Both the position numbers and the translations under genes were made by a program. DNA of 64,000 bases from Burkholderiales bacterium (GTDB lineage Bacteria > Pseudomonadota > Gammaproteobacteria > Burkholderiales > SG8-39): the NCBI GenBank assembly GCA_035652275.1, contig DASREB010000162.1:4371-68370 (forward strand), written 5' to 3'. The notes below the pieces were generated by a model that was given only the letters and a program-made list of their open reading frames with translations, had not been told where the DNA came from and made no database searches. Below are positions 30,169 to 56,874 of this stretch, piece by piece (the stretch's first letter is position 1; the number at the start of each line of letters is the position of its first letter).

Positions 30169-30235
30169 CGTCGCCCCCGCGAAGGCGGGGGTCCATGTTT
30201 TAGAAAACTGGGTTCCCGCTTTCGCGGGAACGACG
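30169..30235. repeat. Composite REP / MITE-like element (two inverted REP hairpins), intra-operonic
   Basis: CGTCGCCCCCGCGAAGGCGGGGGTCC-atgttttagaaaactg-GGTTCCCGCTTTCGCGGGAACGACG. The ends are inverted repeats of each other. Same architecture as 51843-51915. Confidence 0.8.
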
Positions 30236-39443: not shown

Positions 39444-39467
39444 GTCGTCCCCGCGAAGGCGGGAACC
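39444..39467. repeat. REP unit (single)
   Basis: GTCGTCCCCGCGAAGGCGGGAACC, followed by aacttcctgaaaaat. Same orientation as the left half of the composite elements. Confidence 0.7.
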
Positions 39468-41339: not shown

Positions 41340-41363
41340 GGGTCCCCGCGAAGGCGGGGACCC
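41340..41363. repeat. REP unit acting as probable bidirectional terminator hairpin
   Basis: GGGTCCCCGC-GAAG-GCGGGGACCC between convergent GST (+) and amidohydrolase (-). Confidence 0.7.
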
Positions 41364-48137: not shown

Positions 48138-49544
48138 TTAAGTAGTCTGCCGCAACGCGCGCGACAGGGCTTGAACGTCGCTGGCCGCGCCGAGCCCCTG
48201 TGTCGCACGCTCGAGCGCTCCGAGCGCATCGCCCCTGAGCGATCGCAGCGCGTTGGCGCGGAATTTCGCCAATACGGCGTCGCTGCCCGGCGGGCGCGTA
48301 TGGTTGCCGAACACGTCATCGATGCGCACGCTCTCGCTCGTGCCGCGCTTCGTTTGGCAGATGATTTCGGCTTCGAAGCGTTGTGGGAAGCGCGAGTCGG
48401 CCAGCGGCTCCCACGCGACACGCCTCGCGAAATCGCGAACGTCGGCGCTTGCCGATGCCTCGAACGTCGCGAGATCGACCTTTCCTTCCACGAGCTGCGC
48501 GGCTACGGTGATCGGCAGGCTCCAGCGCGCGGCGTGGCCGTTGGCGGGGGATTGCTTGGTTTCCCACGGCTCGCAGATCACTGGCGCTTCGCCCTGAGGC
48601 ACGCGGCAGAGGATGCGCTCGACGTCGTCGGCGCGCACGCCGCGCTCGGCGAGTTTGCTGGCGGCTTCGATGAAGGGGTGAAGGTAGTGGCAGCAGGGAT
48701 AGAACTTGTACGCGGCCTTCGGCAGGTGCCATTCGCGGCCGAGGTTGGCGATCAGGCTGCGGAAGCGGCCGGCGGCGGCTTCGTCACCGGTGAATTGGCG
48801 GAAGAGGCCATGCTTGCCGTCGAGCGACGTCTCGGGTCCAGTCATTCCCGCGCGCGCGAGCGTCGCCGCAACTACGCCGCCGTGCGCGGCCCAGCCGGGA
48901 TGCAGCGATTTCACCGATGAGCCGTTGGTGAGGAACTCCATGACGCCGGAGGCTTGGCTGAGGGCGATGCCGATGGCGGCGACGGTTCGGTCTTCGTCGA
49001 GGTCCATCAGCTCGGCCGCGAGCAGCGCCGACACCAGCGTGCCGGTGACGGACGTGCTCATGAAGCCTTTCGCGTGGAAGCCGTTCGGCGCGGCCAAACC
49101 GAAGCGGATCAGAACTTCCCAGCCGCGCGCGTAGGCGCCGAGGAGCGCGGTGCCGCTTGCGTTCTGCGCCTCCGCCACGGCGAGCGCGGCGGCGGCGAGG
49201 ACTGCGCTGCCGTGCGCGATGGAGCCGGTGTGCGTGTCGTCGAACTCGAGGCTATGGATTAGGCCGCCGTTGATCATGGTGGCGTCGGCTGCGGCTGCGC
49301 CGGTGGATTGGCCGAACACGGTGGCCGGGCCGCCTTTCGCGACCTCGGCGGCGTAGGCGCGGTAGGCGGCGCCGATCGGCGAGCCGGCGGCGGCGAGGCC
49401 GACGCCGATCGCGTCCAAGAAGTGCAGCCGCGCCGCGGTGGCGACGTCTTCCGGCAGCGGCGTTTTCGCGGTGGCGCGCGCGGTGCGCACCAGTTCGCGT
49501 GCGAGGGTCACGGCTTCACCATGGACGCGAGCGTTTCCTTCCAT
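48138..49544 (-). CDS. MmgE/PrpD family protein
   Basis: 468 aa; typical MmgE/PrpD length and pattern. Alternative GTG start at 49511 would give a GTGA overlap with the upstream stop. Confidence 0.85.
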   Translation of the reverse strand: MEGNARVHGEAVTLARELVRTARATAKTPLPEDVATAARLHFLDAIGVGLAAAGSPIGAAYRAYAAEVAKGGPATVFGQSTGAAAADATMINGGLIHSLEFDDTHTGSIAHGSAVLAAAALAVAEAQNASGTALLGAYARGWEVLIRFGLAAPNGFHAKGFMSTSVTGTLVSALLAAELMDLDEDRTVAAIGIALSQASGVMEFLTNGSSVKSLHPGWAAHGGVVAATLARAGMTGPETSLDGKHGLFRQFTGDEAAAGRFRSLIANLGREWHLPKAAYKFYPCCHYLHPFIEAASKLAERGVRADDVERILCRVPQGEAPVICEPWETKQSPANGHAARWSLPITVAAQLVEGKVDLATFEASASADVRDFARRVAWEPLADSRFPQRFEAEIICQTKRGTSESVRIDDVFGNHTRPPGSDAVLAKFRANALRSLRGDALGALERATQGLGAASDVQALSRALRQTT

Positions 49545-50896
49545 CCTTGCGCGAGAACGGCCTTGTCGCCGCGGATGATGTTCGCCAGGGTGGCGGGCGC
49601 GGCGGGGAACACGCCGCCGGCGTTCTCGGCGAGCTTGGAGAGGAGCGTCGGCTCGTCGAAGGGCTTGTCGTAGCCGCCGCGCGCGCTCTCCACGAGGGCG
49701 CTCATCTCGCCGCCGTCGCCGAAGCGCATCGTCACGCGCGCCGGCCGGTCGTTCGGCGCGGGCTTGAGGTCGGGGTAGGGCTGCAGGCGAACGCGCTCGC
49801 GCAGCTTGGCGATGCGCTCGTCGCGCAGCTTGTCATCGGTAAAGGCGCGCGCCCCCGCGGTGCCGAGCTGCACGGTGGCGGCGATGGCGTGCGGCAGCGA
49901 GAACTTCGCCGCGAGCACGGTCTCGGGCTCGGCGTTGCGCAGCGCCTGGCCGCCGGGCGCGGTCTCGACGACGATCTCGGCGATGTCGTCCTTTTTCGTT
50001 TTCATGCGGCCGAGGATGTCGAGCGTCGCCTCGATCGCCGAGTGCGCGTAGCCGCAGCAGGCGAACACCTTGTGATAGCCGTTGGTGACCGACCATGTGT
50101 CGCCGAGGCCCTCGATCAGCTTTTCGGGCATTGCGCGGCACTTGTAGGCGCCGACGAAGACGTCGTAAGGCGTGACGTCGTTGCCGCCGATGCCGGCTTC
50201 GGCCCAGTCGGCGGCGCGCAGGCCGATCCACGCGCCGGCGGAAGTCCATGCGTTGCGGATGAGCGCGCCTTCGACTGCCGTGTCGAACGGTCCGGCGAAG
50301 GACATGCTCGCGGCGCCGGTCACGGCAGAGAGCATCGTCTTCGCGTCCTGCCGGCGTACGAGCGAGGCGGCCGCTGCGCCGCCGATGGTGGCGAAGGCCG
50401 CGTGCGGATGCACGTTGAACACGGGGAACGGAAACGCGAGCGCGAAGCGCGTGGTGACTTCATAGGCGACGGCGAGGGCGCGCAGCACTTCTTCGACGCT
50501 GCGGCCCTGTGCCTCGGCTTCGGCGAGGAGCGCGGGAATCGTGTACGCGCCGCCGTGGCAGGAAGCATTGCGAAAGCCTTCGTCTAGCTCGCACCACGTT
50601 ATCGCCATGCCGTTGGCGCTCGCGGCGGCATAGCGATCGGCGCGCGGTGCGCCTTGGGCGAGCACGGTCGCTTCGACTTTGCCGGAGGAGGTGCGCAGCA
50701 ATCCTTCGCGCGCCTTCGCGACCTGCGTCTCGAGCGATCCGGCGACCATCGCGCCGATGTCGTCGGAGAGGATGATCGCCCCACGCCGGCGCACCGGCTC
50801 GGGCAGCGGTTTCCCGACCGCCTCGACGGCCCATTCGATGAGCTTGCGGGTGTTGGCGGCTGCCTGGGAGCGAGCGGGATTTGCGTTGGTCGTCAT
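49508..50896 (-). CDS. MmgE/PrpD family protein (second, tandem)
   Basis: Start MTTNANPARSQ at ATG 50896, 462 aa. The upstream part of the 511-aa ORF is unsupported. Confidence 0.85.
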   Translation of the reverse strand: MTTNANPARSQAAANTRKLIEWAVEAVGKPLPEPVRRRGAIILSDDIGAMVAGSLETQVAKAREGLLRTSSGKVEATVLAQGAPRADRYAAASANGMAITWCELDEGFRNASCHGGAYTIPALLAEAEAQGRSVEEVLRALAVAYEVTTRFALAFPFPVFNVHPHAAFATIGGAAAASLVRRQDAKTMLSAVTGAASMSFAGPFDTAVEGALIRNAWTSAGAWIGLRAADWAEAGIGGNDVTPYDVFVGAYKCRAMPEKLIEGLGDTWSVTNGYHKVFACCGYAHSAIEATLDILGRMKTKKDDIAEIVVETAPGGQALRNAEPETVLAAKFSLPHAIAATVQLGTAGARAFTDDKLRDERIAKLRERVRLQPYPDLKPAPNDRPARVTMRFGDGGEMSALVESARGGYDKPFDEPTLLSKLAENAGGVFPAAPATLANIIRGDKAVLAQGWKETLASMVKP

Positions 50897-51002
50897 GGCA
50901 AGGATGCTACGAGAAAACGTGCATCTACCGAGTGGATCGTGGTAATCGGTTTCGTGGATGCGGCGCTGCGCTAAGCTTTCGGCGCCCCCTAAAGGAAACC
51001 TC

Positions 51003-51833
51003 ATGCGCATCTGGCACCACAGCTTTACCGACCTGACGGTCATGCCGCTCTATCGCAAGACGATCGCGGAGCATGCAGCCGCCGTGATGGGCAAGGATGC
51101 CACGGTGAGCGTCCATGGCCTGCGGCCCGGCACCTACACCGAGGGCTGCGCGCCGATCGACGCGATCAAGTACCGCTACGTGGCCGCGGTTCACGATCTC
51201 CAGATCTGCGACGCGGCGATGGTGGCGGAGCGCGAGGGTTTCGACGCGATGGCCATCAGCTGCTTCTTCGATCCGGGCTTGCGTCCGGCAAGGTCGCTGG
51301 TCGACATCCCGGTCGTCAGCCTCGGCGAGTCGTGTGCGCTGACCGCCTGTTCCTTGGGGCGCAAGTTCGGCCTGGTCACGCTCTGCGAGGATCAATCGGC
51401 CGACTACACCGACATGCTGGTGGCCTATGGACTCGAGCGCCGCTTCGCCGGCGCGCTCGCGCTCGACCCGCCGATCGACGAGTTCGCGCTCGAGGCCGAC
51501 GAGAAGACGGCGCGGGCGATCGAGGAGCGCTTCGATGCGGCGTGCGCGGCCATGGTCGCGCGCGGCGCCGAGATCATCATCCCGGCCGACGGGGTGCTCA
51601 ACGAGTTCCTCGTGCGCCGGCGCCGCCTGTCGGCGCGTGGCGGCGTGCCCGTGATGGACAGCCTCGGGGTGCTGTTCCAGCACGCGGCGTTCCTGGTGCG
51701 CCTCAAAGCCACCACGGGAATGGGCGTCAGCCGGCATCAGTTCTATGCCAAGCCGTCGCGCGAGATGGTCGAGCACGTGCGGAACTTCGCCGGCCAGCGG
51801 AAACTGGCGAGCGACTTCTCCGGAGACCGCTGA
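51003..51833 (+). CDS. Asp/Glu/hydantoin racemase superfamily protein (paralog of 27570-28361)
   Basis: MRIWHHSFTDL... ISCFFDPGL ... IIIPADGVLNE. 276 aa. Confidence 0.65.
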   Translation: MRIWHHSFTDLTVMPLYRKTIAEHAAAVMGKDATVSVHGLRPGTYTEGCAPIDAIKYRYVAAVHDLQICDAAMVAEREGFDAMAISCFFDPGLRPARSLVDIPVVSLGESCALTACSLGRKFGLVTLCEDQSADYTDMLVAYGLERRFAGALALDPPIDEFALEADEKTARAIEERFDAACAAMVARGAEIIIPADGVLNEFLVRRRRLSARGGVPVMDSLGVLFQHAAFLVRLKATTGMGVSRHQFYAKPSREMVEHVRNFAGQRKLASDFSGDR

Positions 51834-51842
51834 CGTTTCTGC

Positions 51843-51915
51843 CGTCGCCCCCGAGTGCTTTTATCGGGGGTCCAGTTTGCTTTTTAAACGGGGTCCCCGC
51901 CTTCGCGGGGACGAC
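51843..51915. repeat. Composite REP / MITE-like element
   Basis: CGTCGCCCCCGAgtgcttttaTCGGGGGTCC-agtttgctttttaaac-GGGGTCCCCGCCTTCGCGGGGACGAC. Same organisation as 30169-30235. Confidence 0.75.
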
Positions 51916-51961
51916 ACTCCTGGTCTAGCGTAGTGGCCGCTTTAGACGGCTTGGTCCCGAC

Positions 51962-52025
51962 TTGCGGACAATAATTCCACTGTTGTGGACAATACGCCAT
52001 AGCTAGTCTACAGTTGTGGACATGA
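51962..52025 (+). promoter_or_regulatory. Three phased direct repeats TTG(C/T)GGACA(A)T upstream of and overlapping the fic start
   Basis: TTGCGGACAATA (51962-51973), TTGTGGACAATA (51983-51994), TTGTGGACATGA (52014-52025; contains ATG 52022). Start-to-start spacing is 21 and 31 bp. Confidence 0.45.
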
Positions 52026-53536
52026 GGCGACCCGTAGACCAGCTTCGTGGACACGAGCGCGCTCCGGAACTTGTCTTCGCGGACGCGGGCTCCAGCAAAC
52101 GCTATCAGCGCGAGGTAGCGGCGGGTCGCATGCGTCGTATCGGACGGGGCATCTACACACCGAACCTGGACGACGCGCCGGACATCATTGTTCAACGGCA
52201 CCGCCACGACCTCCTGGACGCGCTGTATCCGGAGACCGTCGTCTCGCACAGGAGCGCGATCGAGATCGGCGCTGCGGTCCAGTCCCACATCTGGCTTACG
52301 GCGCCGGTGGCGAAGGAGCGCAGCGTCAAGTATCCCGGGCTCACAGTGCACATCCTCCCCGGAACGGGGCCGGTACGCGGCGATATCCGCTTCAGAAGCC
52401 TTCATCTGGCGGGGCCTGCTCGCTACTTCCTCGAGAACCTGACGGCCTCCAGGGGCGCGCAGGAAAGCCGCAAGACGCTTCCGCGCGCCGAGCTCGAGCG
52501 AAGACTTGCCGAGATCATAGTGAGCCGGGGCGAGGGCCAGCTCAATCGGCTGCGCGATGAGGCGAAAGCCATTGCACCGGAGCTCGGCCTCGAGAAGGAG
52601 GCGGCACAGCTCGACTCCATCATCGGGGCGCTTCTCGGTACGCGACCCGATGCGGCCATCTCCGACCGGGCAAATATTGCGCGTGCGCAGGCTAAGCCGT
52701 TCGATATCAGCCGGGTGCGCCTGCTGGAGCGGCTCGCACTCGATCTTCGCGAGGTGCAGACGCCCGACTTCCGGCCGGTGCCGGACATGCGGGGAAATGT
52801 GGAGGTGCTGCATACCTTCGCTTTCATGGAGGCATATTTTTCGAACTTCATCGAGGGAACCGAGTTCGAAGTCGACGAGGCGAAACGCGTCGTCTTCGAA
52901 AACCTGCGCATTCCCCGGCGGCAGAACGACACGCACGACATCCTCAATACCTATCGATTGGTCGTCGATACGTACGAGATGTCACGGCTGCCGAAGTCGG
53001 CTGAAGAGTTTCTCGAGCTGCTCAAGGCGCGTCACCTTGCAATCCTGGAACACCGCAAGGACAAGAACCCCGGTGTGTGGAAGGATGTGCGAAACCGCGC
53101 CGGAAATACCGTGTTTGTCGAGCCGGATCTCGTCACCGGCACGCTGGTCCAGGCGTTCGAGATCTACAAGGCGCTGCCGCATGCGCTGGCACGGGCCATC
53201 TTCATGCAGATCGCCGTGTCGGAGGTCCATCCCTTCAACGACGGCAATGGCCGGCTATCTCGCGTCATGATGAACGCCGAGCTAACCCATGCACACGAAT
53301 CGCGCATCATCATTCCCACGGTGTACCGGGACGATTACATCACCGCCCTGAAGGCCTTCAGCCAGAACCGCGAGACGGACCCGGTGATCCGCATGTTCGA
53401 ACGCGCCCAGGCCTTTACAGCGAGCATGGATTACACAGGGTACGAAGCCGCCAAGGAATCGTTCACCAGAGCGGATGCTTTCAAGGATCCGCGGGAAGGA
53501 AAACTCGCCTTTGCTGAAAGACGCTTGCGGCCATAG
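52022..53536 (+). CDS. Fic-domain AMPylase (class II, N-terminal inhibitory helix) with about 250-aa AbiEi-antitoxin-like N-terminal extension
   Basis: HPFNDGNGRLSR at 53228-53263. SNFIEG inhibitory motif at 52841-52858. N-terminal AAGRMRRIGRGIYTP...VVSHRSAIEIG. Uses AGA/AGG/ATA/CTA/TTG codons that are rare in neighbouring genes. Confidence 0.85.
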   Translation: MRRPVDQLRGHERAPELVFADAGSSKRYQREVAAGRMRRIGRGIYTPNLDDAPDIIVQRHRHDLLDALYPETVVSHRSAIEIGAAVQSHIWLTAPVAKERSVKYPGLTVHILPGTGPVRGDIRFRSLHLAGPARYFLENLTASRGAQESRKTLPRAELERRLAEIIVSRGEGQLNRLRDEAKAIAPELGLEKEAAQLDSIIGALLGTRPDAAISDRANIARAQAKPFDISRVRLLERLALDLREVQTPDFRPVPDMRGNVEVLHTFAFMEAYFSNFIEGTEFEVDEAKRVVFENLRIPRRQNDTHDILNTYRLVVDTYEMSRLPKSAEEFLELLKARHLAILEHRKDKNPGVWKDVRNRAGNTVFVEPDLVTGTLVQAFEIYKALPHALARAIFMQIAVSEVHPFNDGNGRLSRVMMNAELTHAHESRIIIPTVYRDDYITALKAFSQNRETDPVIRMFERAQAFTASMDYTGYEAAKESFTRADAFKDPREGKLAFAERRLRP

Positions 53537-53609
53537 CCCGCGTGCTGAGTTGCTCGCGGATTGCACCTAGAGCAAGCCGATTTGCCAGAAACCCTCTTTT
53601 TCAAAACCT

Positions 53610-53634
53610 GGGCTCCGCCTTCGCGGGGACGACG
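53610..53634. repeat. REP unit (single), direct copy of the right half of 51843-51915
   Basis: GGGCTCCGCCTTCGCGGGGACGACG preceded by ctctttttcaaaacct. Compare gctttttaaacGGGGTCCCCGCCTTCGCGGGGACGAC at 51880-51915. Confidence 0.7.
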
Positions 53635-53636
53635 AA

Positions 53637-55022
53637 CTAGCGGGTCTTGCCGGGGAGCGGTGGCTGGCCGATGCGGCGCCAGAGGTATTTGCCGTGGCCG
53701 CCCTTGCCGACCATCTTGTGATCGTCCATCACCGTCACGCCGCGCGAGATCGCGCGCACCGGCCAGCCCTTGAAGTTCCCGCCTTCGTGCAGGTTGTAGT
53801 CGGCGTAGGAGGCGAAGTCGGCCGCGTGCAGCACGCGCTCCTTGTTGAGGTCGACCAGCGTGAAGTCCGCATCCGCACCGGGCGCGAGCGAGCCCTTGAG
53901 CGGCGCGAGATCGAACACCTTCGCCGGCACCGAGCCGAGAAGCTGACAGATGCGCTGCAGCGGAAGTTTCCGCTTGTGATAGCCCTCCGAAAGCATGACG
54001 GGCAGCATGCTGGCGGTCGCGGGGAAGCCCTGCGATGCGAGCCAGAGCGGCTTGTCCTTGTTCACCTTCTTGCGCGCGTTGTGATCGGACGCGACGAGGT
54101 CGACCGTGCCGTCGAAGATCGCTTCCCAGATCGCCTCCTGGTCGTCCTGGGTGCGAAACGGCGGATTCGCCTTGCCCATGCCGCCGAGCTGCGAGTCTTC
54201 GGTGTGCGTGAGGTAGTGCGGGCAGGTCTCGACGATCACGTCCTTGAAGCGCCGCCGCCAGAAGCGAATGATGTCGAGCGCCTTGCGCGAAGAGATGTGC
54301 GGGAAGTACACGCGCGCGCCGAGCTCTTCCGCGAGGTACATGGCGCGTAGCGCCGGCTCCGATTCGGTGATCGCCGGCTTGGACGCCGACCAGTCCTTCA
54401 GCGTGTTGCCGCCGCGCGCCTGCACCTTGCGGCGCTCGCGGTTCACGATCTCGATGTTCTCGGTGTGGCAGACGATGAGCGGCCGGCCGACCCGCGCCGA
54501 TTCCTTGAGGAGATCGTAGAAATAGCCGTCGTCGGTGCCATCCAGCCCGAGGTAGCGGCCTTCCTCGCCCTTGAAGTTCATGAAGTACTTGAACGACGTG
54601 ACGCCGTAGTCCTTCACGTAGTCGCCGAGTTCCTTGATGTGCAGCTCGTTTGCCGTGCTGAAGTGAAAGCCGAAGTCGACGTGCGCGCGCTCGACCGCGT
54701 ACTGCAGCTCGCGCCGAAAGACCTCGCCGTACGCCTCGTTGTTGAGGAAGTAGCCAAGCACGGTGGTGAAGCCGCCCTGCGCGGCGTTGGCGGTCTCGGT
54801 CGAGTACTCCGTGATCTTCTCGCCCATGCCGAAGTGCACGTGGCAGTCGATGAGGCCCGGGAAGACGTGCAGTCCTTTCGCCGACTCCTCCGGCACGCCC
54901 GGGGCCGCGGTGCCCGGCGCGAGCAGCGATTCGATCTTGCCGCTCTTCACCAGCACGTCCTTCATCTCCGGCTCGCGGTCGGGAAACACCAAGGTGCCGC
55001 CGCGCAATACGAAGTCGCTCAT
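53637..55022 (-). CDS. Dihydropyrimidinase / D-hydantoinase-type cyclic amidohydrolase (second copy)
   Basis: Start MSDFVLRGGTLVF (ATG 55022). GLIDCHVH, Lys in TSFKYFM, CHTEN, PHIS, ASDH. Confidence 0.85.
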   Translation of the reverse strand: MSDFVLRGGTLVFPDREPEMKDVLVKSGKIESLLAPGTAAPGVPEESAKGLHVFPGLIDCHVHFGMGEKITEYSTETANAAQGGFTTVLGYFLNNEAYGEVFRRELQYAVERAHVDFGFHFSTANELHIKELGDYVKDYGVTSFKYFMNFKGEEGRYLGLDGTDDGYFYDLLKESARVGRPLIVCHTENIEIVNRERRKVQARGGNTLKDWSASKPAITESEPALRAMYLAEELGARVYFPHISSRKALDIIRFWRRRFKDVIVETCPHYLTHTEDSQLGGMGKANPPFRTQDDQEAIWEAIFDGTVDLVASDHNARKKVNKDKPLWLASQGFPATASMLPVMLSEGYHKRKLPLQRICQLLGSVPAKVFDLAPLKGSLAPGADADFTLVDLNKERVLHAADFASYADYNLHEGGNFKGWPVRAISRGVTVMDDHKMVGKGGHGKYLWRRIGQPPLPGKTR

Positions 55023-56038
55023 CGTTGTGCGTACCTTTGCCTGAGTTCCTGCATTGAGTAATGGGCCTGCGTGCCGGTGGGCGTGTTGAGTGCCGGCAGC
55101 GTGATGGCGATGTCTTCTTCCGGCACGTCGCGCGAGATGCAGACGAGGCGGTTCGAGTGATCGGCGGACGGCCCGAGCTCGTCCCAATTTCGGAAGCGCT
55201 GCGGCGCATGGAACACGCCCTGCACGCCCTGCACGAAGGCCACCTCGCCGCTGTCTTCCATGCGCAGCAGTCCTTTTACGCGGATGAGCTTCGCGCCGAA
55301 CTCCGCCGTCGCGAGGCGCGACCACGCCGCCCAGCCGGCCCACGTGATTGGCGGCGGCGGGCGGAACGCATGTGCGCGAATGCCCGAAAAATGCTCGCGC
55401 CGGCCGATTCGCCCTCGCGTGTTCAACGACACCTTGTACTTGCGCTCCTTTGCCCAGGTGGAAAAGAGCGCGGCCGGTGTGTCGAGCACTTCTGCCTCGG
55501 GGTTGTGCTCGCGAAGGAAAGCCAGCACTGGCGAGGGATCGGCGAGATCGCGCTTCGTGACGTAGAGGCGCTCGGCAATCGCGGCCTGTTTGTCGAGCTC
55601 GGGGTATTCGCTACGCGAGGCGAGGAAGTGCTGTGCGTCCACCGTGCACACGGTGGCCTCGAAACCATAGGCGGCGGTGACCAGCGGGTGGCCGAGGAGC
55701 ACGTTGAGGAGCGGCGCCGGATCGGCGGCGCCGCTCGTCTCGATGATCACGCGCTCGAAGCGCGGGATCTCTCCGCGCGCGCGCCGCCCGTCGAGGTCGG
55801 CGAGCGTCTCGTGGAGCGCGCCGGTGTTGGCGCAGCACAGGCACCCGGCGTCGAGCAGCACGACGTTGTCGGTCGCCTGGGCGATCATCACGTTATCGAG
55901 GCCGATCTCGCCGAGCTCGTTCACCACCACGGCCGTGTTGGCGAGCGTCGGATCCTTGAGCGCCTTGTTGAGCAGCGTCGTCTTGCCGCTGCCCAAGAAG
56001 CCGGTGAGGAGGAAGACCGGAGTTTTTTCCGCTGTCAT
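55019..56038 (-). CDS. COG0523 (CobW/YjiA-like) G3E metallochaperone GTPase (second copy)
   Basis: FLLTGFLGSGKTTLL, GCLCCA. ATGA overlap (55019-55022) with the hydantoinase start. Confidence 0.85.
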   Translation of the reverse strand: MTAEKTPVFLLTGFLGSGKTTLLNKALKDPTLANTAVVVNELGEIGLDNVMIAQATDNVVLLDAGCLCCANTGALHETLADLDGRRARGEIPRFERVIIETSGAADPAPLLNVLLGHPLVTAAYGFEATVCTVDAQHFLASRSEYPELDKQAAIAERLYVTKRDLADPSPVLAFLREHNPEAEVLDTPAALFSTWAKERKYKVSLNTRGRIGRREHFSGIRAHAFRPPPPITWAGWAAWSRLATAEFGAKLIRVKGLLRMEDSGEVAFVQGVQGVFHAPQRFRNWDELGPSADHSNRLVCISRDVPEEDIAITLPALNTPTGTQAHYSMQELRQRYAQR

Positions 56039-56163
56039 GTACGGCGCTTGTGTTCGCCGAAGAGCTGCACCAGCGCGTCGCGCGGCCAGCGATTCGCCGA
56101 ATCGTTCTCGACGCGCGGATAATTATAGGACCGCGTACATTGGACCGAGGAAGGATAGCCCGC

Positions 56164-56874
56164 ATGAAACCCTGGGACGGCATCGTCAGCGAGGAAGACC
56201 AGAAGCAGACATTCGCGGCCGGCTTCGGCCGTCCCGGCGGCGTCGGCAAGCGGCCGGCGCTGCTGATCATCGACGTCCAGTACCGCACCATCGGCACGAC
56301 GCCGAAGCCGTTCTGGGAAGCGATCAAGGAATATCCGACTTCGTGCGGCGAAGCCGGCTGGAATGCGATGCGCAACATCGCCGTGCTGCTCGCCGAGTTC
56401 CGCCGCAACGACTGGCCGGTGCTCTATCCGCACGTCGCGCCGAAAAACAAGGCGACCGACGGCGGCCGGCTCGCGGAGAAGGTGCCCGCGATCATGAACA
56501 TCCCGCAGAAGGGCTACGAGTTTCCGTCGGAGATCGCGCCGCGCGAAGGCGACGTGCTGCTGCCGAAGAAGCACCCGAGCGCGTTCTTCGCCACGCCGCT
56601 CGTGAGTCACCTCGTCGATCTGGGTGCCGACACGCTTGTGGTCACCGGCTGCACCACCAGTGGCTGCGTGCGCGGCAGCGTGGTCGACGGCTTCGCCTAT
56701 AACTTCCGCGTGCTGGTGCCCCACGACGCGGTGTATGACCGCTGCAATGCGTCGCACGCCGTGAATCTTTTCGACATGGCGGCGAAGTACGCGGACGTCG
56801 GCACGACCGCCGAGATCCTGGAGAAGCTGCGGCCGCTCGCGAAGAGCGCGGGCGCGGCGCGCAAGGTCGGCTGA
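56164..56874 (+). CDS. Isochorismatase-family cysteine hydrolase (N-carbamoylsarcosine amidase / maleamate amidohydrolase-like)
   Basis: ATG 56164. LLIIDVQ (Asp), LPKK (Lys) and VVTGCTTSGCV (Cys) triad contexts. Confidence 0.8.
   Translation: MKPWDGIVSEEDQKQTFAAGFGRPGGVGKRPALLIIDVQYRTIGTTPKPFWEAIKEYPTSCGEAGWNAMRNIAVLLAEFRRNDWPVLYPHVAPKNKATDGGRLAEKVPAIMNIPQKGYEFPSEIAPREGDVLLPKKHPSAFFATPLVSHLVDLGADTLVVTGCTTSGCVRGSVVDGFAYNFRVLVPHDAVYDRCNASHAVNLFDMAAKYADVGTTAEILEKLRPLAKSAGAARKVG

Follow-up and report, generated by a model that had tools for sequence, protein, structure and literature searches.

Our analysis supports the presence, in a single polypeptide encoded within a 64,000-nucleotide stretch of a Burkholderiales contig (hereinafter the window), of an N-terminal domain related to the AbiEi antitoxins and a class-II, i.e., cis-inhibited, Fic domain. 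This fusion defines a large and widespread family, which is partly plasmid-borne, and its gene is always accompanied by a clade-specific array of repeats that are spaced by whole helical turns and cover a promoter-like site and the start codon. Taken separately, AbiEi regulators and Fic AMPylases are well known; we found no description of an AbiEi–Fic fusion in the entries of Pfam, NCBIfam or the PDB, nor in the literature searched, and the conserved phased box array at the 5′ end of the fusion gene is likewise new here. The complete ORF (52022..53536, forward strand) runs from an ATG at 52022 to a stop codon at 53534-53536 and codes for 504 aa comprising, in order, the AbiEi-like N-domain, a helical linker and the class-II Fic domain; an alternative GTG start at 52016 would yield 506 aa. 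The AF2 model of the 504-aa protein has a mean pLDDT of 88.9 and a pTM of 0.73. In its secondary structure five helices (aa ~150-245; 52469..52756, forward strand) join the AbiEi-like domain to the Fic core, and this linker is retained family-wide, with E159, G170, L174, D179, A181, G202, D228 and R231 being invariant in an alignment of 26 homologues. The protein ends ~30 aa past the Fic domain.

Judging by its sequence, the C-terminal half constitutes an intact nucleotidyl (AMP) transferase of the class-II Fic type. Profiles and Foldseek delimit a Fic/Fido catalytic domain at aa ~239-472 (52736..53437, forward strand): the Pfam Fic model (PF02661) aligns to aa 332-420 and scores 37.3 bits over a cutoff of 24 (E 5e-9 with the full protein), the PADLOC models SoFic and PDC-S04 match the Fic core with E ~6e-18, and the fold is matched by Foldseek to FICD, BtFic, SoFic and CdFic (E down to 5.6e-10). 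The active site can be read directly as HPFNDGNGRLSR at aa 403-414 (53228..53263, forward strand), precisely where the initial annotation had recognized a Fic domain, and fits the pattern HxFx(D/E)GNGRxxR. The class-II inhibitory motif S-N-F-I-E-G, which had been placed about 125 aa upstream, is recovered by alignment at aa 274-279 (52841..52858, forward strand), with Glu278 as the inhibitory residue and a measured distance of 129 aa to the catalytic His403 on its C-terminal side. In the AF2 secondary structure S274-G279 lies in the helix 260-277 and just past it, and a profile match to the PDB aligns the motif with the TVAIEGN helix of FICD and Fic-1. Across the 26 aligned homologues, which are diverse, full-length and 43-85% identical, the active-site residues H403, P404, F405, D407, G408, N409, G410, R411 and R414 are invariant, as are S274, N275, I277, E278, G279 and T280 of the inhibitory segment, indicating that both the active site and the helix with the cis-inhibitory Glu are under strong purifying selection. 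Class-II Fic enzymes bearing this Glu can be chiefly deAMPylases, and in FICD and EfFic the residue supports deAMPylation; known bacterial Fic toxins AMPylate GyrB/ParE, FtsZ or EF-Tu.

The N-terminal ~150 aa are remotely but reproducibly homologous to the AbiEi antitoxins/repressors. PADLOC, the NCBIfam family TAA_AbiEi, Foldseek and secondary structure jointly delineate an alpha/beta domain at aa ~16-145 (52067..52456, forward strand), the core of which (aa 24-110; 52091..52351, forward strand) is aligned by the PADLOC AbiEi models. When the N-domains of 20 family members were compared with the PADLOC models, PDLC02225 matched 19 of them (best E 4.9e-6), and every one of the 19 families with a match (PDLC02225 and 18 more) is an AbiEi family; TAA_AbiEi was the sole recurring NCBIfam family, found with weak scores in 6 of the 20. 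A Foldseek search with the N-domain model ranked AbiEi (6Y8Q, 6y8q_A) first, with E 7.1e-3, a probability of 0.94 and 212 aligned columns at a low TM of 0.31-0.35; the structural neighbors ranked below it are nucleotidyltransferases (NTases), e.g., 5KQJ, and Rv2827c falls outside the best 50 matches. The likeness to AbiEi thus exceeds chance. It escapes the Pfam AbiEi models, of which AbiEi_4 matched 1 of the 20 N-domains with E 0.43; neither Pfam nor NCBIfam significantly annotates the N-terminal half when the whole window protein is searched, and a sequence profile of the N-domain finds only chance-level matches (Hsp70, L28) in the PDB. The initial annotation had proposed an AbiEi-like domain from N-terminal strings that are indeed present in the translation and had suggested checks with Pfam and with a structure model: the proposal stands as a remote relationship borne out by PADLOC and by the model's top match, the Pfam check came out against it, and the R-G-[IV]-Y consensus given in its support holds in the close clade only, the wider family displaying P-x-L-Y-T.

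The part of this domain that would contact DNA appears less complete than in AbiEi itself. The AF2 model features a strand (18-19), a helix (25-33) and a hairpin (38-46), followed by an AbiEi-CTD-like sheet with helices. The complete AbiEi wHTH (H1-S1-H2-t-H3-S2-W1-S3-W2) is absent from it, as H1 and H2 are missing and residues 1-12 are disordered, and the HMM alignment likewise starts at position 30 of the AbiEi model. Thus, in the model the AbiEi-type wHTH appears to be truncated, with the retained helix 25-33 and hairpin being basic and equivalent to H3 and the wing of AbiEi. Since what is left is a single helix and a hairpin, sequence-specific DNA binding by the N-domain is not assured.

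Though the initial annotation knew of no characterized system with this architecture, it is not unusual in nature. Searches with the N-domain profile recovered 1572 protein clusters (at 50% identity) from many phyla and from plasmids, and the best-scoring of these are full-length Fic fusions or fragments; where members are named they are labeled just "Fic family protein". Full-length homologs of the AbiEi-like–Fic protein number in the hundreds, 19 plasmid records, including that of the conjugative pNL1, carry the fusion gene, and a scan of genome contigs, in which the generic pattern HPFxDGNGR predominated, furnished at least ~11 full-length members from named organisms. Members are scattered patchily among phyla and sit next to varying genes, and nonsense and frameshift variants occur. 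No member was present in the phage collection searched, in which there was one distant Fic-only match. About half of the homolog contexts are mobile, defense or TA-rich and about half are ordinary metabolic or housekeeping surroundings; given this mixture, enrichment in defense islands is not demonstrated.

The gene stands alone, as had been claimed: no partner ORF adjoins it in the window, where the downstream space is too small for one, and no neighbor is conserved across at least 16 homolog contexts. Specifically, an AbiEii/DUF1814 gene next to the ORF is lacking in the window and at every homolog locus examined, the sole AbiEii noticed being ~7 kb away at locus L003. Nor did we find a trans-acting inhibitory-helix antitoxin of the FicTA class I type, the motif being in cis and the neighbors unconserved. 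Two further candidates were considered and rejected: no small downstream antitoxin resembling AS1 is conserved, the small ORFs that follow the plasmid copies at loci L116 and L117 being unrelated; and no natural two-gene split versions were recognized, the version at L118 being a point-nonsense variant and the other inspected short matches ending in a frameshift-like or truncated manner.

Upstream of and across its start the window gene displays four operator-like boxes of the form T[TC]G[TC]GGACA, at 51962, 51983, 52014 and 52045 (51962..52053, forward strand), with a spacing of 21, 31 and 31 nt, which overlap both the start codon and a promoter-like site. The latter resembles a sigma-70 promoter by hexamer reading (51986..52014, forward strand), with a -35 TGGACA inside box 2, a 17-nt spacer and a -10 TACAGT in the left arm of box 3, and predicts a leaderless mRNA starting at about 52021; TGGAC(A/G)-17-TA(C/T)AGT can also be read at homolog loci (e.g., L094 and L097). 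An inverted half-site precedes each of boxes 1-3 (TCCCGA, TCCAC and TCTAC, respectively), such that boxes 2 and 3 with their half-sites form a ~14-bp palindrome, TCYACNGTTGTGGA; box 4 has a weaker upstream half only, GTAGAC. With up to one mismatch the motif occurs five times in the 64 kb, and four of these matches, all on the same strand, are packed into 92 nt around the start of the gene. The one other match in the window has one mismatch and equals the chance expectation, and hence no regulon is visible: the box as a genome-wide regulon signal was rejected, the window total being that of chance and only its clustering at the Fic gene being significant. The initial annotation had described phased repeats over the start codon, and comparative analysis shows that these belong to the gene: in all 16 of 16 close homolog loci boxes occupy positions -85, -54 and -23 relative to the codon for Glu16, with 31/31 spacing, in genomic contexts that are otherwise unrelated. 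More distant members have 5′ repeats of their own: among 17 such loci the best lag was 20-22, 31-33 or 41-43 nt, i.e., 2-4 helical turns, in 12, compared with 20 of the 102 windows that served as controls (Fisher p 5.6e-5, with the lag classes picked after inspection of the data). A scan of the 5′ region with Rfam yielded no match. The phased array probably lets the gene repress its own expression, for which AbiEi and Rv2827c provide precedents of multi-site autorepression (PMC3985639, PMC7319586).

The locus is also flanked by REP copies and atypical in GC content, where the initial annotation had spoken of a REP-bounded, codon-atypical cassette. A REP-like GC hairpin, GGGGTCCCCGCCTTCGCGGGGACGAC, lies in the upstream flank (51889..51916, forward strand; arms 51893-51900 and 51905-51912), and a second REP-like copy, identified by sequence and in the same orientation, in the downstream flank (53609..53637, forward strand); their 16-mer CCGCCTTCGCGGGGAC has 6 copies in the window versus 0.29 expected. 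Only 100 nt separate the stop of the Fic gene from a convergent amidohydrolase gene, with the downstream REP copy inside this gap, directly before the stop codon of the latter gene. The GC content of the Fic gene is below that of its flanks, and the gene interrupts a metabolic cluster, a related version of which is contiguous, without the Fic gene, on a Variovorax plasmid. That cluster differs in gene order, so that no exact empty site can be demonstrated, and a megablast search against plasmids gave partial gene-level matches only, at 70-77% identity.

We propose that the gene forms a stand-alone, horizontally mobile module in which an enzyme is coupled to its own control region, and that its product would be a self-repressed, auto-inhibited Fic AMPylase acting as a one-polypeptide system akin to TA or abortive-infection systems; we see the chances for and against this proposal as evenly balanced. 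The comparative data support a transcriptional layer of control, in the form of the gene's own operator array, in addition to the inhibitory Glu. In the proposed mechanism, protein monomers would bind the boxes via the AbiEi-like domain, lined up along a single face of the DNA, as AbiEi and Rv2827c do at their own promoters. Occupancy of the boxes would block the start as well as the -35 and -10 hexamers, keeping expression very low, and the scarce protein product would be held catalytically off by Glu278. A trigger such as phage infection, stress, lost repression or an altered oligomeric or DNA-bound state would lift the inhibition, upon which the freed Fic domain would AMPylate an essential host target and bring about growth arrest, as characterized bacterial Fic toxins do. 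A toxin or abortive-infection role of the fusion is plausible, and the AbiEi-like domain might then act as an antitoxin in cis. Speaking against the proposal are the apparent truncation of the wHTH, the silence of the Pfam AbiEi models and the low TM values, the ordinary surroundings of about half of the loci, the lack of members in the phage collection and the chiefly deAMPylating action that Glu-bearing class-II enzymes can have. A more far-reaching version, which we hold as possible though doubtful, would see in the entire family (>1000 clusters at 50% identity) an unrecognized class of one-polypeptide TA/abortive-infection systems: here an AbiEi-derived domain would have been captured by Fic in place of AbiEii, would repress the gene via an operator of several phased boxes extending over the start codon and would gate the AMPylase post-translationally, with both brakes being released upon phage attack or loss of the element to cause growth arrest.

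Alternatively, the protein might be a non-toxic regulator in the service of host physiology, namely a DNA-binding transcription factor tuned by reversible AMPylation/deAMPylation of itself or of a chaperone-like client, comparable to the action of FICD on BiP. We deem this rather unlikely, even as several observations favor it: the Fic domain is closest to FICD and Fic-1, the invariant inhibitory Glu is of the kind that supports deAMPylation in FICD and EfFic, many loci lie amid ordinary metabolic or housekeeping genes, and CccR is an example of a Fic protein that acts as a true transcription factor. However, a factor acting on host physiology is hard to square with boxes that, apart from one chance-level match in the 64 kb, are confined to the 5′ end of the gene itself, with no regulon in sight, and the patchiness across phyla, the variable neighbors, the plasmid copies, the nonsense and frameshift variants and the atypical GC content all fit an accessory mobile gene better.

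Another reading, which we consider quite unlikely, turns on the truncation of the wHTH in the AF2 model: the N-domain would not bind DNA at all, being instead a degenerate NTase-like or AbiEi-CTD-like module that recruits a substrate or senses a ligand, and the repeats would serve as binding sites for some host factor or act at the level of RNA. It gains from the NTases that are the next structural neighbors after AbiEi, and from the finding that the AbiEi CTD, with an NTase-like core fold, alone suffices for antitoxicity (PMC3985639, PMC7319586). Against it, the repeats differ from one protein clade to another and accompany the gene among unrelated genomes, which a host factor or generic element does not explain; their whole-helical-turn spacing points to recognition of a DNA face; the retained hairpin and helix 25-33, both basic, match the wing and H3 of AbiEi; and no Rfam family is present in the region. 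As for the notion that the protein is a decaying or inactive Fic remnant with coincidental N-terminal similarity and repeats, the unannotated N-terminal half in Pfam and NCBIfam might invite it, but the conservation data effectively refute it and we judge it extremely improbable: the ORF is intact with all family-invariant residues kept, there are hundreds of full-length homologs and a confident structure prediction, and chance falls far short of explaining the AbiEi-only match pattern and the conservation of the box positions.

Comparisons with known systems place the proposed module between several of these. Its affinity to AbiEi and Rv2827c (COG5340) is seen in the remote sequence-profile homology of the N-terminal ~150 aa and in a probable likeness of the predicted fold, with a basic helix and beta-hairpin leading into an AbiEi-CTD-like domain, and its NTase neighbors such as 5KQJ recall those published for AbiEi (PMC7319586). 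Like the window boxes, which overlap a promoter-like site, the repeats IR1-IR4 of Mycobacterium tuberculosis Rv2827c extend over its own promoter to the translation start. Unlike AbiE, the window gene lacks an adjacent AbiEii/DUF1814 gene, the transferase being a Fic domain in cis; its N-domain apparently lacks H1 and H2 of the wHTH and goes undetected by the Pfam AbiEi models, and its boxes are chiefly direct repeats with 31-nt phasing as opposed to a 23-3-23 inverted pair. A two-gene counterpart of the fusion, as compared by description, is the V21 (AbiEi-like)/V22.1 (Fic) pair of ICEHptfs3 from Helicobacter pylori, overlapping genes proposed by their authors to be a TA pair, in which Fic likewise replaces the AbiEii NTase; these are separate genes and the pair is uncharacterized.

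The best functional analog of the mechanism proposed for the window gene is CccR of Yersinia pseudotuberculosis, an autorepressor and FtsZ-AMPylating toxin that combines in one polypeptide an auto-inhibited class-II FIC domain (S59ARIEG) with a DNA-binding domain through which its own promoter is repressed. CccR differs in the reversed order, with Fic N-terminal and an unrelated DNA-binding domain C-terminal, and in being a T6SS-secreted effector, whereas the window protein gives no hint of secretion. SoFic, a single-gene anti-phage defense system, consists of a class-II Fic protein with a C-terminal domain and has a small downstream antitoxin, AS1. The window protein has in common with it a predicted class-II AMPylase with the logic of an inhibitory helix (PADLOC SoFic E 5.7e-18) and the design idea of one large Fic protein as a toxic defense effector. 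However, the match covers only positions 33-269 of the 361 in the model (aa 239-472), the NCBIfam SoFic model gives 15 bits where its cutoff is 550, the C-terminal wHTH/CTD is missing with the extra domain being N-terminal and of AbiEi type, and no AS1-like small downstream gene is present at the window locus or conserved in the family. Among solved structures, the catalytic half is closest to FICD/HYPE and Caenorhabditis elegans Fic-1, eukaryotic class-II AMPylases/deAMPylases of BiP (profile E 1.4e-11, Foldseek E 5.6e-10), with which inhibitory helix and active site align. FICD differs in its TPR N-terminal region, membrane anchor and role as a regulator of an ER chaperone, and has neither an AbiEi-like domain nor an operator array. 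That these closest solved relatives are regulatory enzymes is an observation that runs counter to a toxin reading.

Should the proposed mechanism hold, AbiEi-type antitoxin domains would prove to be modular and reusable with unrelated NMP-transferase toxins, and the known toxin and defense systems would be joined by a single-gene design with two brakes. The fusion would also offer Fic biology a new bacterial model for the release of class-II auto-inhibition. If it is a physiological regulator instead, it would constitute a widespread bacterial counterpart to FICD-like reversible AMPylation, coupled with DNA binding. The conserved 9-14-bp boxes with their 31-nt phasing and the protein they accompany make up a candidate operator–repressor pair that is readily testable.

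The ORF is intact on the + strand of the window, running from ATG 52022 (or GTG 52016) to a stop at 53534-53536, and codes for a product of 504 or 506 aa in which, as the initial annotation had observed, an AbiEi-like N-domain and a class-II Fic domain share one polypeptide. The Fic signature HPFNDGNGRLSR (aa 403-414, nt 53228-53263, + strand) and the S-N-F-I-E-G motif (aa 274-279, nt 52841-52858, + strand), both read from the sequence, lie exactly where that annotation had placed them. Pfam recognizes the Fic domain at aa 332-420 with 37.3 bits against a gathering score of 24. Among solved structures, FICD and C. elegans Fic-1 are the best matches of a profile derived from 26 full-length homologues (E 1.4e-11), and their inhibitory TVAIEGN helix lines up with the SNFIEG helix of the window protein. 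The AlphaFold2 model of this protein (mean pLDDT 88.9, pTM 0.73) likewise finds class-II Fic structures as its matches, led by FICD (E 5.6e-10) and followed by BtFic, SoFic and CdFic. In a 26-sequence alignment, whose members are 43-85% identical to the window protein, the catalytic residues H403, P404, F405, D407, G408, N409, G410, R411 and R414 and the inhibitory-motif residues S274, N275, I277, E278, G279 and T280 are invariant. The motifs, the Pfam, profile and model matches, and the invariant residues thus identify the C-terminal half as an intact, cis-inhibited class-II Fic enzyme under purifying selection; the protein belongs to the class-II Fic family and displays all of its testable defining features.

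The proposed AbiEi similarity of the first 260 residues finds no significant echo in Pfam and stands on other evidence. Sequence-profile searches of Pfam, NCBIfam and the PDB with aa 1-235 returned nothing significant, and the N-domain is covered by no Pfam or NCBIfam model, nor by a PDB entry. Among the AbiEi models of PADLOC, three match the window protein, the best at E 2.6e-4 with aa 24-110 set against model positions 30-111 of 198. When 20 diverse N-domains were scanned singly, the PADLOC AbiEi model PDLC02225 matched 19 (best E 4.9e-6); the PADLOC families matching any of the 20 number 19, AbiEi models without exception, and TAA_AbiEi is the sole recurring NCBIfam family (6 of the 20, weakly). 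When the N-domain is modelled by itself in AlphaFold2 (pLDDT 86.5), its top PDB match is 6Y8Q, the S. agalactiae AbiEi crystal structure (E 7.1e-3, prob 0.94, 212 aligned columns), at low TM-scores of 0.31-0.35. The canonical AbiEi wHTH has the form H1-S1-H2-t-H3-S2-W1-S3-W2 (PMC3985639); what seems to remain of it in the AlphaFold2 models is a strand at 18-19, a basic helix at 25-33 and a hairpin at 38-46, residues 1-12 being disordered. The resemblance to AbiEi is real. The N-domain is AbiEi-like, a remote homologue, and we assign it no membership in the AbiEi family, since AbiEii, the partner by which that family is defined, is missing.

This architecture is common and the family widespread. 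The full-protein search gave thousands of matches; among those listed are more than 100 full-length proteins of ~490-505 aa, and the sources include Burkholderiales, Luteimonas, Acidiferrobacteraceae, Sphingomonadales and Elusimicrobia, with labels such as "Fic family protein", "Fic/DOC family", "fido" or "hypothetical protein". Full-length members in named genomes include those of Chitinophagales, Bacteroidales, Dyadobacter, Holosporaceae, Dongiaceae, Caulobacteraceae, Thiobacillaceae, Opitutaceae and Thermoleophilia. With the N-domain profile alone, 1572 cluster representatives (50% identity) are recovered, 391 of them at E <= 1e-30; the 150 best comprise full-length fusions and fragments as well as a few longer variants (581-695 aa). 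Three family members, P0182 (581 aa), P0173 (653 aa) and P0216 (695 aa), carry C-terminal extensions of 90-200 aa past the Fic domain. The fusion gene is present in 19 plasmid records, which include the conjugative Novosphingobium pNL1 and replicons of Phocaeicola, Bacteroides, Hymenobacter, Variovorax and Rhizobium; none of the phage records searched carries it. The architecture is hence no one-off, and in this respect the finding is more ordinary than the initial annotation had proposed. We found no description of a fusion of AbiEi, AbiEi-like or COG5340 domains with Fic in the literature searched. The family amounts to an undescribed Fic subfamily of large size, marked by an N-domain derived from AbiEi and by a conserved operator-like array.

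Several known systems offer parallels: CccR, a class-II Fic protein with a DNA-binding domain, is an autorepressor that AMPylates FtsZ as a toxin; SoFic is a Fic defence system of a single gene; and H. pylori ICEs carry overlapping AbiEi-like and Fic genes that have been proposed to form a TA system. The window gene is no AbiE system, given its lack of AbiEii and its incomplete wHTH. Nor is it SoFic, which its product matches in the core only, without the C-terminal domain or AS1, and it is not a class-I FicTA.

The array in the window comprises four + strand boxes of the form T[TC]G[TC]GGACA at 51962, 51983, 52014 and 52045, spaced by 21, 31 and 31 nt; only five matches with <=1 mismatch occur in the 64-kb window, four of them being these boxes. 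An inverted half-site precedes each of boxes 1-3, yielding a palindrome of approximately TCYACNGTTGTGGA at boxes 2 and 3, and box 4 has a weaker upstream half only. The sole sigma-70-like site in the region takes its -35 (TGGACA) from box 2 and its -10 (TACAGT, 52009-52014) from the left arm of box 3; GTG 52016 lies inside box 3 and ATG 52022 abuts it. No Shine-Dalgarno sequence is visible in the window gene or its close relatives, and the position of ATG 52022, only ~8 nt past the predicted -10, suggests a leaderless mRNA. For the subclade to which the window protein belongs (P0001-P0005), the start codon that the family normally uses, in the last box (GTG 52047), is one base out of frame, and therefore translation must begin at ATG 52022.

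The phased repeats over the start codon noted in the initial annotation were seen again, and a phased operator-like array with the start codon proved to be family-wide, in which respect the finding is richer than first proposed. In all 15 loci of a close set (64-85% protein identity; from soil and sediment metagenomes and from Luteimonas, with differing neighbours), the same boxes recur as TTRTGGAC at -85, -54 and -23 relative to the Glu16 codon; with the window counted, the 31/31-nt spacing holds in 16/16 loci, and in most of these the start codon comes from the last box (..TATGGAC.., Met-Asp). Members ~40-45% identical have other repeat sequences in the same geometry, for example TAATGGAAAAT, ATG included, in L007, L013 and L022; CTGGAARAAATATCG in L008; TGCTTAATCGACAA (14/14) in L017; and CTTCTTATCAGACT in L116. 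Within the 5' 170 nt, the lag of the best 14-nt direct repeat falls at 20-22, 31-33 or 41-43 nt for 12 of 17 loci versus 20 of 102 control windows from the same loci (Fisher p = 5.6e-5, indicative only, since the lag classes were picked after inspection). The repeats move with the gene, differ from one protein clade to another, stay in whole-turn phase and span promoter and start codon, features that mark the array as a candidate cognate autoregulatory operator. AbiEi and Rv2827c show such behaviour: as monomers they occupy two or four repeats that span the -35 and the -10 and reach as far as the start codon (PMC3985639; PMC7319586).

No conserved neighbour gene was found among the homologue loci examined. 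Some homologues lie near IS605 TnpB and AbiEii ~7 kb away (L003, 1-635 and 6145-7434), hipBA (L002, 13507-15167), CHAT and caspase genes (L010/L011, 2193-7059), JetD of Wadjet (L021, 5696-6874), IS21 (L022), or vapBC and integrases (L117). This sample supports no claim of enrichment near defence, TA or mobile genes, since other homologues sit among metabolic or housekeeping genes (the window, L001, L005, L007, L008, L014, L020, L023). In the window, a metabolic cluster (48138-56874: two MmgE/PrpD, Asp/Glu/hydantoin racemase, amidohydrolase, CobW, isochorismatase) is split by the Fic gene, which has the racemase on one side and the amidohydrolase on the other; a related cluster on Variovorax sp. 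SRS16 plasmid 4 (L119) is contiguous without it, hipBA being inserted alongside instead. The gene has a GC fraction of 0.60-0.65 versus 0.66-0.73 around it. A REP-like GC hairpin (core CCGCCTTCGCGGGGAC) occurs six times in the window versus 0.29 expected (30173-30188, 30216-30231, 39447-39462, 41342-41357, 51897-51912, 53615-53630); the two + strand copies flank the Fic gene as direct repeats, their similarity extending over ~35 nt (CTTTTT-AAAC-GGGG..), and could mark a recombination or insertion site.

The computed picture is of a solitary, mobile gene for an intact, auto-inhibited Fic transferase with an AbiEi-related N-domain and a phased, operator-like array linked to it. We propose that, through its AbiEi-like domain, the protein would bind its own boxes and repress transcription and initiation, while Glu278 would block productive ATP binding in the few copies made; a trigger lifting both brakes would permit AMPylation of an essential target and growth arrest of a TA- or abortive-infection-like kind. 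An active but auto-inhibited NMP transferase is highly probable and autorepression by the protein likely, a toxin or defence role is a tentative suggestion, and for the composite of a mobile, self-repressed, auto-inhibited Fic with a TA/Abi-like outcome the chances are about even. The initial reading of a one-gene module is thus partly supported: the solitary joining of an auto-inhibited Fic to an AbiEi-related domain stands, and the TA/Abi outcome is one that we infer. The closeness to FICD and the many ordinary neighbourhoods would also suit a physiological regulator with reversible, FICD-like AMPylation, a rather unlikely alternative given the patchy, mobile distribution and the lack of further boxes in the window. 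That the N-domain is instead a degenerate NTase-like sensor or adaptor without DNA binding would accord with the truncation of the wHTH and with the presence of NTases among the structural neighbours, but the repeat array travels and varies with the gene, making this quite improbable. Chance resemblance or a decaying remnant is effectively excluded by the conservation data.

Some gene calls merit comment. The homologue locus L118 (332-1816) was rejected as a split gene, having one in-frame TAG within an otherwise full-length gene; because this falls exactly where the N-domain/linker part meets the Fic domain, gene callers give a 231-aa AbiEi-like and a 260-aa Fic protein. Several further short N-domain-profile matches end in frameshift-like tails, and these and the L118 stop may be assembly errors or reflect pseudogenization of a toxic gene. 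Near the Fic gene in the window, the two MmgE/PrpD ORFs overlap by 37 nt (49508-49544) and there is an 86-nt overlap (50958-51043) between the racemase ORF and the start of the divergent MmgE/PrpD ORF; the longest-ORF starts of these neighbours are probably too far upstream, in high-GC DNA.
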